A DNA stretch of 24,171 bases from contig CBDUXW010000001.1 of assembly GCA_965371275.1 (NCBI GenBank), forward strand, positions 1 through 24,171, given 5' to 3'. The translations under genes and the position numbers were made by a program. Positions 2,357-10,256 of the stretch are shown here, piece by piece. This DNA is from an uncultured bacterium. Lineage in GTDB: Bacteria; Acidobacteriota; UBA890. The notes beneath the pieces were generated by a model that saw only the letters and a list, made by a program, of their open reading frames with translations, did no database searches and was not told the origin of the DNA. Position 1 is the stretch's first letter. Each line of letters starts with the position of its first letter.

Positions 2357-3184
2357 ATGAGCGACGAGCAGGACAACTACGACGACGCGCCGGAGTCGGG
2401 GAGGGCCGACATCGACGATGTGTCCTCGTATGCCTACGGGGAGGAAGCTCCCAGCGGCGCCGGGGCTATCTTCGGCCCCTTCTTCAACGCCATTCTCGGT
2501 CCGGCTGATTGTTGGAGAGCCCTCGATGCGCGACCGTTGCTGGGTATCTGGATCGCGCTCTGGGTGGGCGCGTTTCAAACAGTTCTGGCAATCATCAATT
2601 TGCCGATCTCGCGACAGGCCATGATTGCCGTCGCCCGCTCATCCATGCAGGCGCAGGGTGAGGTGACCGCCGAGCAGTTGCAGCAAACGACGGGCATGAT
2701 GACCATGATCGCCACCATCTCCGCCTACGCCGGGGTTCTGTTCATCCTGCTGATGATCGCCGTGGTGGCGCTGACGATCTGGCTGTTGGCGACGATGATG
2801 GGTGGCGAGGCGACGTTCGGCCGCAGCTTCGCGTTGGCGAGCGCCGCGGCGGTCATTAAGCCGCTGCTGTACAGCGTCTACGTAACCATCATTCTGCAAA
2901 TCAATCCGCCCGAAATTCGTCGCGCCGAAGACATCCAGGAGATGACACCGACGCTCGGCCTCGACTTGCTGGTCTCACTGATTTGGGGGCCCGACACGCC
3001 CGCGTGGCTCAACGCCGTGTTCATGCGCGTCGATCTGTTCAGCCTCTGGTGGATGGTACTGATCGTGTCCGGGTCGATGGCGCTGCTGAAGCTGTCGAGG
3101 GGGAAGGGGATAACGCTGGGCGCCATCCTGTGGGCATTCGGCACGTTGTTCGCGATGCTCGGCGCGTTCTTCCAGGCCGGATAA
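2357..3184 (+). CDS. YIP1-domain integral membrane protein
   Basis: About 5 hydrophobic segments with YIP1-like spacing and an acidic N-terminal tail. Start moved to ATG 2357 because GAGGAG lies at 2345-2350. Confidence 0.7.
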   Translation: MSDEQDNYDDAPESGRADIDDVSSYAYGEEAPSGAGAIFGPFFNAILGPADCWRALDARPLLGIWIALWVGAFQTVLAIINLPISRQAMIAVARSSMQAQGEVTAEQLQQTTGMMTMIATISAYAGVLFILLMIAVVALTIWLLATMMGGEATFGRSFALASAAAVIKPLLYSVYVTIILQINPPEIRRAEDIQEMTPTLGLDLLVSLIWGPDTPAWLNAVFMRVDLFSLWWMVLIVSGSMALLKLSRGKGITLGAILWAFGTLFAMLGAFFQAG

Positions 3185-3204
3185 CCCGCCTGTTCGCTGC
3201 GCTG

Positions 3205-3235
3205 TCGGCGCGGCAACGTAAAGCCGCGGCGCCGA
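3205..3235 (+). terminator. GC-rich hairpin after the YIP1 gene (no U-tract; terminator or pause candidate)
   Basis: TCGGCG-CGGC (3205-3214) pairs with GCCG-[CGG bulge]-CGCCGA (3223-3235), loop AACGTAAA. Confidence 0.3.
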
Positions 3236-3265
3236 TTGACCGTCGCGTCGCAACGTTGCTACCAT
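3236..3265 (+). promoter_or_regulatory. Sigma70-type promoter of the trp operon
   Basis: TTGACC (3236-3241), 18 nt, TACCAT (3260-3265) with an extended -10 TG at 3257-3258. It sits about 28 nt upstream of the leader ORF. Confidence 0.7.
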
Positions 3266-3292
3266 CCTGCCTTCATCAACGGAGCGACCGCT

Positions 3293-3391
3293 ATGCGCGA
3301 CATCACCGCAATTCGGCACCGCCGTCTCGGCGCGCGCGCTCCGTCTATGCTGGCCCTCCACGCCTGGCGATATTGGTCCTGGACCTGGTAG
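3293..3391 (+). CDS. trpL: Trp-rich leader peptide, MRDITAIRHRRLGARAPSMLALHAWRYWSWTW* (32 aa; 14 aa if started at ATG 3347)
   Basis: GGAG at 3281-3284, ATG 3293, TGG codons at 3365, 3374, 3380 and 3386, TAG at 3389-3391. It lies between a promoter and trpE and is too short for the supplied ORF track. Confidence 0.85.
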   Translation: MRDITAIRHRRLGARAPSMLALHAWRYWSWTW

Positions 3392-3392
3392 G

Positions 3393-3448
3393 GGCCGGCT
3401 TCCGTTTTCTCTCTTTTCCCTGACAAACAAAACGACGGAGGCTGGGCC
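3393..3448 (+). promoter_or_regulatory. Attenuator hairpin sequestering the trpE ribosome-binding site
   Basis: GGCCGGCTTCC-GTTTT (3393-3408) pairs with AAAAC-[GAC]-GGAGGCTGG[G]CC (3429-3448), using two G-U pairs. The 3' arm contains GGAGG (3437-3441), 8 nt before TTG 3450. Confidence 0.7.
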
Positions 3449-3449
3449 G

Positions 3450-5036
3450 TTGACAGAACGGTCAAGGCGCATGTGTGTGTTCCCGGATTTCGACGACTTC
3501 GCCGCCGCGGCGGAGCGGGGGAACTTCGTGCCCGTGTGCACCGAGCGCCTGGCCGACCTATTGACGCCGGTTGGTGCCTATCTGCGCATCGTCGGCCGCT
3601 GGCGACGCCCGTTCCTGCTGGAAAGCGCCGAGGGCGGTGAGCACATCGGTCGCTACTCGTTCTTGGGCGGCGATCCGTTTCTCGAGGTCGAGGGCGACGT
3701 CGACGAGTTGACCGCTTGTGAACCGGACGGTACCCGACGCCGGATCGACGGCGATCCCGTAGCGGCGCTGGCCGAATTGCAGCGCCGGTATCGCGCCGAG
3801 TCGGTCCCGGGAGCTCCGCCGTTTACCGGCGGCGCCGTGGGCTACATCGGTTACGACGCAGTCCGTTGGGTCGAACGAATCCCGGACGTCAATCCTTCCG
3901 ATCCCGACATGCCGTGGGTAAACCTTGCCTACTACGACACGGTGCTGGCCTTCGACCACCTGCGACATCGCGTCGTTCTCGTGGCCAACGCCCGCATCGA
4001 GGCGGGCGCCGGCGAAACCGAGTTGCGCCACGCATACGAGCAGGCGATCGACCGGCTGGGGGAACTGTCGGCGGTGCTCGACAGCGAGCCGCGCGCCGCG
4101 GCGCCGCTCGATCGTATCCATGGCGATCGAACGACAATCGACCTCAAGGTCGGCGAGGAAGGTACCGAGAGCCTCGGACACGACGAATTCTGCAGGGCGG
4201 TGAGCGCCGCCCAGGAGCTCATCGCTGCCGGCGACGCGTTTCAGATCGTGCTGTCGCGGCGTCTCAGCCGCGCCACGACGGCGTCGCCGTTGAGCGTGTA
4301 TCGGGCGTTGCGCGCCATCAATCCGTCACCGTACATGTTCCTGCTCGATACCGGAGACGCCCACGTCGTCGGCTCGTCGCCCGAGATGCTGGTGCGGGTC
4401 AGCGATGGCGTGGTGGAGAATCGGCCGATTGCCGGCACCCGGCCACGCGGCGCGAATGCCGCTGCTGACGAAGAGCTGGAAGCGCAGCTTCTCGCCGACG
4501 AAAAAGAGTGCGCCGAGCACCTGATGCTCGTCGACCTGGGACGCAACGACGTCGGCCGGGTGGCCGAGTACGGCACCGTCGAAGTGCCGGAATTCATGAT
4601 CGTGGATCGCTACTCGCACGTCATGCACATCGTCTCCAGCGTCAAGGGGAGGCTGCGGTCGGAGCTCGGCCCATTCGAGGCACTGTTCGCGGCTTTTCCC
4701 GCGGGTACGGTGAGTGGTGCGCCGAAGATCCGCGCGATGGAAATCATCGACGACCTCGAGCCCGTGGCCCGCGGCGTGTACGCAGGGGCCATCTTGTACG
4801 CGGATTTCGCCGGCAATCTCGATTCGTGCATCGCCATCCGCACGATCGTGATGAAGGACGGACGTGCACAGGTGCAGGCCGGTGCCGGCATCGTCACCGA
4901 CTCGGTGCCGACGCGCGAGTTCGACGAGACCAACCAGAAAGCGGCGGCGGCGCTGCAGGCCTTGGCCTGGGCGACCGAGGCCGAAGAGGCGCCCGCGGCG
5001 GCGCTCGACAACGTCGACAGCATGGTGTCGTCATGA
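3450..5036 (+). CDS. trpE: Anthranilate synthase component I
   Basis: FLLESA and NPSPYM (Trp feedback site), SSPE, PIAGTRPRG, EHLMLVDLGRND, GTVSGAPK, AGAGIV. TTG start has a well-spaced GGAGG. Confidence 0.95.
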   Translation: MTERSRRMCVFPDFDDFAAAAERGNFVPVCTERLADLLTPVGAYLRIVGRWRRPFLLESAEGGEHIGRYSFLGGDPFLEVEGDVDELTACEPDGTRRRIDGDPVAALAELQRRYRAESVPGAPPFTGGAVGYIGYDAVRWVERIPDVNPSDPDMPWVNLAYYDTVLAFDHLRHRVVLVANARIEAGAGETELRHAYEQAIDRLGELSAVLDSEPRAAAPLDRIHGDRTTIDLKVGEEGTESLGHDEFCRAVSAAQELIAAGDAFQIVLSRRLSRATTASPLSVYRALRAINPSPYMFLLDTGDAHVVGSSPEMLVRVSDGVVENRPIAGTRPRGANAAADEELEAQLLADEKECAEHLMLVDLGRNDVGRVAEYGTVEVPEFMIVDRYSHVMHIVSSVKGRLRSELGPFEALFAAFPAGTVSGAPKIRAMEIIDDLEPVARGVYAGAILYADFAGNLDSCIAIRTIVMKDGRAQVQAGAGIVTDSVPTREFDETNQKAAAALQALAWATEAEEAPAAALDNVDSMVSS

Positions 5037-7538: not shown

Positions 7539-8167
7539 GCGACCTGTACTGGAAGGTCTGCGGCATCACCAACGAGGCCGACGCCGACGCCGCAGTGGCC
7601 GCCGGCGCTGACGCTCTGGGCTTCGTGTTCTGGCCGCACAGTCCGCGGGCTATCGACCTCGATACCGCGTCGGACATCGTGGGTCAGGTCCCCGAGGAGG
7701 TGCAAAAAGTCGGAGTGTTTGTCGACGTGTCCATCGCGGAGCTGAACGCTGCCGCCGCCCGGGTTCCGCTCGACCTCGTGCAACTTTCCGGCAACGAGTC
7801 GCCCGCGGCTTGCGCCGCGCTCGCCCGGCCGGCGTGGAAAGCGTTGCGCCTGTCGGCCGCGACCTCGATGGAAGAGGCGGCCAAGCTGGCCTCGGCGTAC
7901 GCCGACTGCACGTTGCTGGTGGACGCGTCGGTACCCGGCGAATACGGTGGCACGGGAGAGACATCCAACTGGCCGGTGGCGGCGGCGTTGGCGGCGTCGC
8001 ACCGCGTCGTTTTGGCGGGGGGGCTCAACGCCGACAACCTGGCGGACGCCGTAGACAGCGTCAGGCCGTGGGGAATCGACGTTTCGTCCGGCGTCGAGAA
8101 GAGCCCGGGTCGCAAGGATCACGACGAGCTGCGCCGGTTTGCCGCGGCGCTGGAGCCCTACCGATGA
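7535..8167 (+). CDS. trpF: N-(5'-phosphoribosyl)anthranilate isomerase
   Basis: KVCGIT, GFVF...SPR, VGVFVD, LVDA, GGTG, LAGGL, DVSSGVE. ATGA overlap with trpC. Confidence 0.93.
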
Positions 8168-9396
8168 GCGACTCGATCCGGCACGCATCTCTGCCTGATG
8201 AAGGCGGGCGCTTCGGCGAGTTCGGCGGTCGCTACGTCCCCGAGACGCTGATCCCGGCGCTGATGGAGCTCGAGGAAGCCCACGCCGAGGCGATGGGCGA
8301 TCCCGAATTCATCGAGCGCTTGGACCTCTTGCTGCGCGACTATGCCGGGCGTCCGACGCCGTTGTTCGCGGCTTCGGGCCTCGCCGCGGAGCTCGGCGGC
8401 GCCGCGATTTGGCTGAAGCGCGAAGACCTTCTCCATACCGGGGCGCATAAGATCAACAACACGATCGGCCAGGCACTACTGGCGCAGCGCATGGGTAAGC
8501 AGCGTGTGATCGCTGAAACCGGCGCCGGCCAACACGGCGTCGCCAGCGCCACGGTTGCCGCGATGTTCGGCCTCGATTGCACGGTGTACATGGGCGAAGA
8601 GGACATGCGCCGCCAGCGTCTCAATGTGTTTCGCATGGAGCTGTTGGGGGCTCGTGTGATGCCGGTGTCCTCGGGCAGTCGTACGCTGAAGGATGCTACC
8701 AACGAGGCCATCCGTGACTGGGTAACGAACGTCGAATCGACCTTCTACATCCTTGGCTCGGTGGTCGGCCCGCACCCTTACCCGGCCCTGGTACGTGACT
8801 TTCAATCGGTCATCGGCCGTGAGGTCAAGGAGCAGTTGGCGGCCGCCGGTGAAACGCCGCCCACATTGCTCCTCGCCTGCGTCGGCGGGGGCAGCAACGC
8901 CATCGGACTGTTCGCCGAGTGGCTCGATGGCGACGTCCGCATGATGGGTGTGGAGGCCGCCGGGCATGGCGTCGACAGTGGCGAACACGCTGCCACCTTG
9001 TGCCGCGGCCGCGTCGGCGTGCTGCACGGAGCGAGCTCGTACTTGTTGCAGGATGCAGACGGGCAAGTGGCGCCGGCGCACTCGATTTCGGCGGGCCTCG
9101 ACTATCCGGGCGTCGGGCCGCAGCACTCCTTCCTGAAGGACTCCGGCCGCGTCGAGTACACGGCGGTTACCGACCGACAGGCTGTCGAAGCGCTGCAGCG
9201 ATTGTCACGCAGCGACGGGATTATCCCGGCGCTGGAGAGCGCGCACGCCATTGCCAAGCTCTACGAGATGGCCGACGCCGGCGAGCTCGGCAGCGACGAC
9301 CGGGTCATCGTCTGTCTCTCGGGTCGCGGCGACAAAGACGTCGAGGCCATCGCCGAGTATCTCGAAACCCACCCCGACCAGGATCTGCGTCGATGA
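8164..9396 (+). CDS. trpB: Tryptophan synthase beta chain
   Basis: [28 protein letters not shown] (PLP Lys), [43 protein letters not shown]. True start is ATG 8164 (ATGA overlap). Confidence 0.97.
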
Positions 9397-10256
9397 GCGG
9401 CCGGGCGATCGAACCGGGAGGCGCGCCGCGCATCGAGGCGGCGTTTGCCGCCGGTCGCGCGGCCGCTCGACCGCTCGTGATCCCGTTCATCACGGCCGGT
9501 TTTCCGGCTGCCGATGCCACCGGACCGATCGTCATGGCGATGGCCGCAGCCGGCGCCGACATCGTCGAGATCGGTATGCCCTTTTCCGACCCGTTGGCTG
9601 ACGGCCCGACCATCCAGCGTTCCAGCGAGGTGGCGCTGCGCAATGGCACGACCGTGGCGGGAACACTCGGCGTCGTTGGCGACCTGCGCGCCCGCGGCTT
9701 GAGCACTCCCGTAGTGCTGATGGGATACTTGAATCCACTGCTTGCCTACGGCTTGGAGCGATTTCTAGCCGATGCCGTGGCAGCGGGGGTCGATGGGCTG
9801 ATTGTCCCCGACCTGCCGCCCGACGAGGCGGCTGACTACCTGGAAGGCTGTCGGCAACATGGCTTGTCCGCGACGTTTCTGGTTGCCCCCAACGCTCCCG
9901 ATGACCGCGTCGTGAAGGTCGACGAGGCGTCGACGCATTTCAATTACTGTGTGACCGTTACCGGGGTTACCGGGGCGCGTAGCGACGTCGAGGAGCGGAC
10001 CATAGAATTCCTGCAACGCGTGCGACGGCTGGCGACCAAGCCGTTCGTGGTCGGCTTCGGCATCAAGCGGGGCACCCACGTTACGGCGTTGGGACCCCAC
10101 GCCGACGGTATCGTGGTGGGCAGCGCCGTGATCGATGCGATCGAGGCGGAGGGTGACGATCCGGCCGGCGCGGCGGCGCGCGTACTCGCCCCGCTGTGTG
10201 CTGCGGCGGACGAGCTCGCGGCAGCGAACAACCCGGGCGAGGGAGTACAAACATGA
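9393..10256 (+). CDS. trpA: Tryptophan synthase alpha chain
   Basis: [47 protein letters not shown]. True start is ATG 9393 (ATGA overlap). Confidence 0.96.

Follow-up and report, generated by a model that had tools for sequence, protein, structure and literature searches.

A conserved Trp-rich leader open reading frame and hairpins over the trpE start region in a class of uncultured Acidobacteriota

The trp leader region

We analysed the leader of the trp operon in a 24,171-nt stretch of DNA (positions 1 to 24,171 of contig CBDUXW010000001.1, assembly GCA_965371275.1; hereafter the window, with a GC content of 66%) from an uncultured bacterium of the acidobacterial lineage UBA890. The gene order around the leader is aroDE, a gene encoding a Yip1-family membrane protein, a gap of 265 nt, trpE-G-D-C-F-B-A and a gene encoding DAHP synthase, and the identities of trpE-G-D-C-F, trpA and the DAHP synthase gene, all located downstream of the leader, are backed by Pfam. 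Upstream of trpE we found a promoter-like site, a small open reading frame (ORF) that is rich in Trp codons and has its own Shine-Dalgarno sequence (SD), and four predicted RNA hairpins (P0 to P3), the helices of which were derived with RNAalifold and pair counting on 21 sequences of the type found in the window's family. The features are the following:

3236..3265, + strand: promoter-like site TTGACC-18-TACCAT with an extended -10 TG; one found against 0.1 expected from shuffled sequences
3279..3286, + strand: 5' strand of P0, the leader SD region (GGAG 3281-3284), pairing with 3337-3344; 88.7% of cells paired in the 21 sequences, core invariant
3293..3391, + strand: leader ORF, trpL-like, 32 codons; SD, ORF and Trp cluster conserved in about 37 loci
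3337..3344, + strand: 3' strand of P0, an anti-SD CUCC in leader codons 16-17 (Ala-Pro-Ser) that can also pair with the trpE SD
3349..3399, + strand: hairpin P1, 3349-3357 with 3391-3399; RNAalifold consensus, 97.3% paired, about -25 kcal/mol
3395..3445, + strand: hairpin P2, 3395-3406 with 3434-3445, over the trpE SD (GGAGG 3437-3441); in 21/21 leaders
3399..3434, + strand: tract rich in pyrimidines and poor in G, made up of the anti-SD strand and the P2 loop; its 36 nt include 3 G and 12 C
3445..3463, + strand: hairpin P3, with the trpE start codon TTG 3450-3452 in its 5' strand; 7 bp, 94.6% paired in the 21 sequences, -8.6 kcal/mol
3450..5036, + strand: trpE (anthranilate synthase I), first gene of the operon; Pfam PF04715 and PF00425, N-terminus conserved from the TTG in the window's family

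The leader ORF runs from ATG 3293 to TAG 3389-3391, and its codons 25, 28, 30 and 32 (TGG at 3365, 3374, 3380 and 3386) specify Trp residues with the spacing W-x-x-W-x-W-x-W, which means that four of the final eight codons are Trp codons and that the one at 3386 is located directly 5' of the stop. A preliminary description of this DNA had pointed to the same arrangement, that is, a promoter followed by a GGAG and a 32-codon ORF with four Trp codons among its last eight and the last of them before the stop. All of these elements are present in the sequence, the promoter in the form of a promoter-like site that is hardly expected by chance. A relative (L006) has an identical promoter-like site in the same place, and the predicted transcript would start near 3272. 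The TTG start codon of trpE lies 8 nt downstream of the GGAGG.

Both ribosome-binding sites are paired to CUCC-type strands, the leader SD in P0 and the trpE SD in P2. The loop of P1 contains all four Trp codons, and the leader stop codon is found at the start of the 3' strand of this hairpin. An alternative pairing that had been proposed earlier, between 3352-3360 and 3386-3396, turned out to be real and to correspond to P1, a conserved hairpin of 3349-3357 with 3391-3399. P2 consists of 12 bp, including 3 G-U pairs, and has a pyrimidine-rich loop of 27 nt. The preliminary description had placed a long stem over the trpE GGAGG at 1 nt after the leader stop; the stem exists and carries the SD in its 3' arm, but its base lies 3-4 nt past the stop, the extra pairs of 3393/94 with 3447/48 requiring a bulge.

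P1 and P2 have 3395-3399 in common. The energy of P2 is -17.1 kcal/mol without P1 and -4.3 kcal/mol when P1 holds these nucleotides, and P1 and the P2 core are anticorrelated in the predicted ensembles of the 21 sequences. The two are mutually exclusive, strand-sharing hairpins of the kind by which an attenuator is recognised. Once P1 has formed, the trpE SD can pair with the 3' strand of P0, and the predicted folds leave the tract 3399-3434 single-stranded. Pairing of the P0 3' strand with GACGGAGG was seen in the minimum-energy folds of four loci (L001, L002, L008 and L116). Ranked by G content, the tract itself falls in the lowest 0.02% of the 36-mers of the 24-kb window, and in all relatives it contains more C than G.

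Conservation among relatives

The reference set for the window's class comprised one order with two families (the window's own and a sister family) and 26 species-level genomes. A Trp-rich leader ORF with its own SD was found upstream of trpE in all 15 genomes of the window's family and a Trp-rich leader in 10 of the 11 genomes of the sister family, while a metagenome scan with the Yip1 protein yielded about 15 more distinct leaders. The leader ORF and a helix that covers the SD occur in all relatives having upstream DNA, with the exception of one genus, and the P2 helix covers the SD in 21/21 leaders with energies of -18 to -33 kcal/mol. Five loci from other families of the same phylum were inspected and had no Trp leader, and a loose DNA pattern scan for further leader copies gave background level, only the trpE copy being convincing in each family genome. 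As the fold energy of the whole leader (3270-3480) is ordinary (z = -0.11, with z = -2.4 for the local P2 segment), it is mainly because of this conservation that we judge the observation to be beyond chance. One genus of the sister family, g11 (L014:2976-3100, - strand), has no leader, and its trpE is found 18 nt after the Yip1 gene.

Insertions and deletions within the ORF (3, 18 and 69 nt) are all multiples of three, those in the P2 loop being of any length, and because the former stay in frame the leader ORF fits a translated gene. The conservation of the Trp codons in aligned trpE leaders, on which the preliminary description had made its proposal depend, was found for the cluster as a whole, which is kept in the family. 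The codon at 3380-3382 is the invariant one in the window's family, and roughly half of the relatives overall lack a Trp at the terminal position (e.g. genera g3 and g4, L002 and L114-118). The ends of the leader peptides include AWRYWSWTW, AWRYWYWCS and YWWFWRN in the window's family and HAWRDAYWYWRYQRPACGA and YYWWCPRPLLHA in the sister family. The rare codons CGA and TAT (W-R-Y; window 3368-3373), which adjoin the Trp codons, are conserved in both families despite the GC content of 66% and fall within the apical loop of P1, which is AU-rich; slow decoding or a requirement of the loop could account for them. Some metagenome leaders (L114:1122-1336, L116 and L117; L123:2205-2470) carry in-frame insertions, namely an 18-nt tandem duplication (IRSDIS twice) and 69 nt between the P0 strand and the Trp cluster.

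Other genera make the P0 pairing with different sequences (e.g. L015 and L016). The arms of P2 likewise differ by genus (CUUCCG:CGGAGG, GCCU.CGG:CCG.AGGC, CUCUCCUC:GAGGAGA, UCCUC:GAGGA, UGCCC:GGGCA and ACUUCG:CGGAGU) with the SD still covered, indicating compensatory change across genera. In P1 we observed covariation at two pairs (UA 9, UG 8 and CG 4 at one; CG 15, UG 3 and UA 1 at the other). Of the covarying stem pairs that had been suggested as a check on the structure, two were thus found in P1, and for P2 the variation appears between genera and not within the family. A covariance model of the window's family finds a homologous helix in genus g10 at only 10-13 bits (E 0.1-1), at or near the top in each of the five g10 loci. 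At the expected place in these five loci the same weak match (10-13 bits) aligns the stop UAG of the window's family with a sense codon, CAG. In g10 the P2 base and P3 share GGCCG, so that P3 can lock the start codon while the leader ribosome holds P2 open.

The sister family has a different layout. The distance from its Trp codons is 9-10 codons to the stop and 9-12 nt to the helix, and its leader continues for nine more codons through the 5' strand of P2, with the stop in the P2 loop. The SD hidden by P2 serves in these genomes a second small ORF of 15-17 codons (L015, L016, L018, L019, L022 and L025; 60 nt before the trpE core), the stop of which overlaps the trpE start (ATGA or TTGA), giving two leader ORFs in series. 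In the window's family the counterpart of this second ORF is fused in frame to trpE, and the first 10 residues of the second ORF are homologous to the N-terminal extension of the TrpE of the window's family.

In genus g3 (L013:2900-3206, - strand; L125:2306-2620, L128, L130 and L131) the start codon behind P2 has been lost, with a TGA right after GGAGGC. A 10-nt insertion gives a new ATG, the TrpE begins with MRVFPEF, and the GGAGG of P2 is 34 nt from this ATG. In the window, the eighth codon of trpE as annotated is an ATG (3471-3473), and it is at exactly this codon that the g3 trpE starts in the alignment. The window's trpE could, judged from the sequence, start at ATG 3471 instead of TTG 3450, with an SD-like AAGG only 3 nt upstream.

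Ribosome position and the output of the leader

The absence of a strong hairpin with a U run before trpE, noted in the preliminary description, was borne out both here and in the relatives. The terminator search in the window leader gave only a weak 5-bp stem with a T-rich tail (one found against 0.8 expected), and no terminator of this type was called in the trp leaders of relatives. Textbook attenuators were found in relatives before hisG (L143:1-3471, L144:1-3423 and L145:1-3456) and leuA (L147, L148 and L149), with leader ORFs that contain runs of 6-7 His or 5-7 Leu codons and are followed by a strong hairpin and T8-T9. These provide positive controls within the class, the his terminator having a 12-bp stem and T8 and the leu terminator T9, and in the his leader the His codons lie in the loop of the first hairpin (the 1:2 loop). 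The class thus uses canonical terminators for his and leu, and in the trp leader hairpins that cover the start codon and its SD have taken the place of the terminator.

Intrinsic termination could in principle occur at P1 together with the T-rich run 3400-3419, in which case a ribosome stalled in the P1 loop would prevent the terminator hairpin from forming. We consider this highly improbable. P1 is a strong GC hairpin (-25 kcal/mol) and is followed by TTCCGTTTTCTCTCTTTT, but the T run is interrupted and differs among relatives, which have CACTTCTCGCC and similar sequences (the sister family none), whereas the real terminators of the class have T8-T9. In addition, any ribosome that closely follows the polymerase would keep P1 from forming regardless of the Trp supply. 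The candidate was rejected because the T run is not conserved and no such terminator was called in the relatives.

A search of 2900-3800 against Rfam at E <= 10 gave no match in the leader, neither to Trp_leader nor to the T-box (RF00230), and the gene for the TRAP protein (PF02081) was found in 0/26 genomes, the control search matching Bacillus subtilis. The N-terminal domain of Rho (Rho_N) is present in 22 of the 26 genomes. Two other candidates were discarded. One is a frameshift fusion of leader and trpE at hungry codons, for which the frame relation to the next start is not conserved (0, 1 or 2 among relatives). The other is a bypass like that of gene 60, with take-off at UGG-UAG and landing on a UGG further downstream; the frame at the landing site appears to be wrong, and the terminal Trp is not conserved.

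A leader ribosome was assumed to cover 15 nt upstream and 12 nt downstream of the first base of its A-site codon, which leaves the following of P2 in the window:

A site at 3374 or 3380: 12 P2 pairs left, -17.1 kcal/mol
A site at 3386: 8 P2 pairs left, -6.9 kcal/mol, GGAGG still paired
A site at the leader stop codon: 5 P2 pairs left, -1.8 kcal/mol

The preliminary description had proposed that a ribosome stalled on the last Trp codons covers the 5' arm of the stem and frees the trpE SD, in the manner of the cat and erm leaders. This is partly true of the window, in which a ribosome at Trp codon 3386 reaches to about 3398 and breaks 4 of the 12 P2 pairs. In this geometry the SD is not freed, however: no ribosome positioned at a Trp codon reaches the strand that pairs with GGAGG (3399-3403), which stays paired, and with the ribosome at the invariant codon 3380 all of P2 is kept. 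Partition-function folding was carried out with the footprint held single-stranded, with pairs across the ribosome allowed or not and with two footprint sizes. With the ribosome placed at a Trp codon, the trpE start did not become consistently cheaper to open, whichever of these codons was chosen; a fall in cost was obtained only for ribosomes on the stop codon or the leader tail (down to 4-15 kcal/mol for the sister family). Folding with and without the footprint, which had been suggested earlier as a check, predicts opening at the end of the leader and not at its Trp codons. Judged from the footprint, P2 is opened from the stop codon in the window's family and from the last nine leader codons in the sister family. 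No anti-sequestor fold was found under the footprint constraint in 21 sequences with three footprint models. Because 3399-3403 is outside the footprint and no anti-sequestor fold was found, a stall at the Trp codons neither sits on the sequestering strand nor frees a displacing one, contrary to what would be expected of a leader of the cat/erm type. A classical 2:3/3:4 switch, in which full P2 would open P3, was also rejected, P2 and P3 sharing one nucleotide in the window's family and P3 persisting in the stalled-state folds.

Direct occlusion as the whole mechanism, by which a ribosome on the last Trp codons would sit on the 5' arm of P2 and free the trpE SD as in cat, erm, SecM-secA and the mycobacterial poly-Cys upstream ORFs (uORFs), is unlikely in our view. 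It has an experimental precedent for the sensing of an amino acid in Mycobacterium smegmatis (bioRxiv 10.1101/834739). In the window, P2 is weakened from -17.1 to -6.9 kcal/mol when the ribosome is at Trp 3386, but the pairs over GGAGG remain closed and the invariant codon 3380 leaves the helix intact. The opening cost is 1.5-5.5 kcal/mol lower than in free RNA in the six genome loci of the window's family that have a terminal Trp, yet this residue is absent in g3, g4, L002 and L114-118; similarly, the cost is 4-8 kcal/mol lower in several loci of the sister family, in which the last Trp codon is nevertheless 9-12 nt before the helix base. P1 may moreover already hold 3395-3399 in the ribosome-free RNA, so that a stall would gain nothing. 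In the models direct occlusion holds partly for the window sequence and is not the conserved logic, and at the last Trp codon it may contribute in those sequences that have a terminal Trp.

The interpretation that we favour, with a confidence somewhat above even, is that the leader is a Trp sensor of the trpL type that is read by the ribosome and has as its output the access of ribosomes to trpE and/or the action of Rho, and not intrinsic termination. The position of the leader ribosome would decide between P1 and full-length P2. The ribosome would be the only agent able to strip the anti-SD strand from the trpE SD, which suggests that the decision acts on ribosome loading at trpE, and Rho-dependent polarity on the untranslated message would be the likely way in which the effect spreads to the operon. 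According to the energy model, a stall at the Trp codons favours or tightens full P2, because any ribosome at that position blocks P1. Two routes would give regulation of the right sign. In route (i), a stall would block P1, full P2 would hide the G-poor, C-rich tract from Rho and RNA polymerase would escape. In route (ii), ribosomes would queue upstream of the slowly decoded Trp codons and keep P0 open, and more of them would reach the end of the leader and open P2.

Several points weigh against this interpretation. The tightening of P2 by a stall, as modelled, would be of the wrong sign for a purely translational switch. Route (i) would fit the window's family and g3 and not the sister family, the ribosome-free RNA of which is predicted to fold into P2 anyway, while route (ii) derives from a toy simulation that can speak to its plausibility only and would leave g3 unexplained. 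In g3 the trpE start lies outside P2 and is accessible whatever the state (7-11 kcal/mol); g3 nevertheless keeps the leader, P1 and P2 (five sequences). The P2 core is invariant within the window's family apart from one GC-to-AU change, covariation coming from the comparison between genera only. Energy models are also blunt for RNA with a GC content of 66%, random sites having opening costs of 15 +/- 4 kcal/mol against 18-23 kcal/mol for trpE.

Rho-dependent attenuation with a classical hairpin logic, like that of mgtL-mgtA or a mirror image of that of tnaC, is an alternative that we regard as rather doubtful. With Trp available, the ribosome would finish the leader, P1 would form, P2 would fall apart and the tract 3399-3434 would be open, so that Rho would stop transcription early in a poorly initiated trpE; without Trp, the stalled ribosome would block P1 and full P2 would mask the tract. 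This has the right sign in combination with the best-supported structural consequence of a stall, and the Trp codons are in the P1 loop as the His codons are in the 1:2 loop of the his leader of the class. The tract is extremely G-poor and predicted to be unpaired when P1 forms, but it is only about 35-45 nt long. A Rho domain is present in most of the genomes, and a weak TTG start inside P3 would give Rho time, although with P1 formed the SD may be exposed or held by the P0 strand, so that translation could compete with Rho. The retention of P1 and P2 in g3, in which P2 misses its start site, is in line with such a scheme; in the sister family the scheme fails, as P2 (-19 to -33 kcal/mol) wins in the ribosome-free RNA.

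A coupling gated by ribosome traffic is distinctly unlikely. Translation of the leader would open P2, the leader would close its own start (P0) behind each ribosome, and slow decoding of Trp codons would park the next ribosome on the 3' strand of P0, so that loading continues and each arrival opens P2 for trpE. P0 is conserved, and the stop or tail state is the only one that opens P2 in both families, whatever the position of the stop; in the window's family, however, P3 persists in this state and the SD may still be held by the P0 strand. A toy exclusion-process simulation gave up to 25-fold more ribosomes at the stop when Trp decoding slowed from 15 to 0.5 per second, which is a model only, and we know of no documented mechanism of such a kind. 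The 23 extra codons between P0 and the Trp cluster in the metagenome leader L123 and the lack of fit to g3 also argue against it.

Returning to the favoured ribosome-read Trp sensor, we see a tentative possibility that its logic is unlike both the textbook attenuator and cat/erm, in that the hairpin favoured by a stall would be the one that hides the trpE SD, with the SD helix acting as a mask of the Rho site or with a self-closing leader start being held open by a queue.

Comparison with known leaders and other observations

Leader-peptide attenuation is a textbook case of the coupling between translation and gene control, and to our knowledge it has been little charted outside the proteobacteria, Firmicutes and Actinobacteria. 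The occurrence in one uncultured class of terminator-type his and leu attenuators beside a terminator-less, SD-hiding trp version offers a natural comparison of two output stages. As modelled, the geometry is unusual, the stall-favoured hairpin being the SD-hiding one. This conserved geometry contradicts the simple picture of a stalled ribosome that unmasks an SD and makes the leader a compact test case for the interplay of ribosome position, RNA refolding and possibly Rho. Even if the mechanism should prove to be ordinary, an unannotated regulatory gene and RNA become available for the annotation of the trp operons of this lineage.

The leader resembles trpL of E. coli and Sinorhizobium (Rfam Trp_leader RF00513; PMC6614838) in having a short ORF with Trp codons before trpE, strand-sharing hairpins and a leader start site that is sequestered after the first round. 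Unlike trpL, it has no intrinsic terminator and no Rfam match, its Trp codons are spaced at the very end of the ORF, and the helix that follows sequesters the trpE SD. Translational attenuation by a uORF that senses an amino acid has been established experimentally for cysteine in mycobacteria (bioRxiv 10.1101/834739). The leaderless poly-Cys uORF of M. smegmatis (Ms5788A) shares with the present leader a sensing uORF, a very stable duplex over the next SD, the absence of a terminator and downstream polarity, the last being a likely property in our case (same reference). In Ms5788A the sensor codons themselves pair with the SD region and the stalled ribosome occludes the duplex, whereas the Trp codons of the window are 9-19 nt upstream of the SD-pairing strand and the leader has its own SD.

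In the cat, ermC and ermB leaders and in SecM-secA, a ribosome stalled on an upstream ORF controls a hairpin over a downstream start, for which the sequence makes our leader a candidate as well. Those systems sense drugs or secretion via nascent-peptide arrest at a site within the hairpin arm. In the present leader, by contrast, the hungry Trp codons are outside the arm. Two small ORFs in series, as in the sister family, are also found in ermBL/ermBL2 (PMC8274638). Rho-dependent leaders (tnaC, mgtL and toiL) have, as here, a C-rich, G-poor tract beside the leader stop, the action of Rho in our case being predicted only. In tnaC, free Trp is sensed through the nascent peptide and a catabolic operon is induced. 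Further features in common with tnaC-tnaA, mgtL-mgtA and toiL-topAI (PMC12121999) are a leader ORF, the absence of an intrinsic terminator, a sequestered downstream start and the presence of Rho.

Terminator-less leader peptides have been noted in Actinobacteria by comparative genomics (PMC1262725), and our full-text literature searches yielded no account of a Trp leader whose output is the sequestration of an SD. The his and leu leaders of the class (L143-L149) are similar in having their sensor codons in the loop of the first hairpin and the next strand about 10-15 nt past the last sensor codon; they differ in their last part, which is a hairpin plus T8-T9 in the his and leu leaders and hairpins across the SD and start codon in the trp leader.

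Further downstream in the operon, trpB and trpA (window 7810-10256) are covered by two long overlapping ORFs. The 445-aa ORF from 8919 matches TrpA in residues 176-423 only, and the sequence suggests that the true trpA start is probably much later than 8919.

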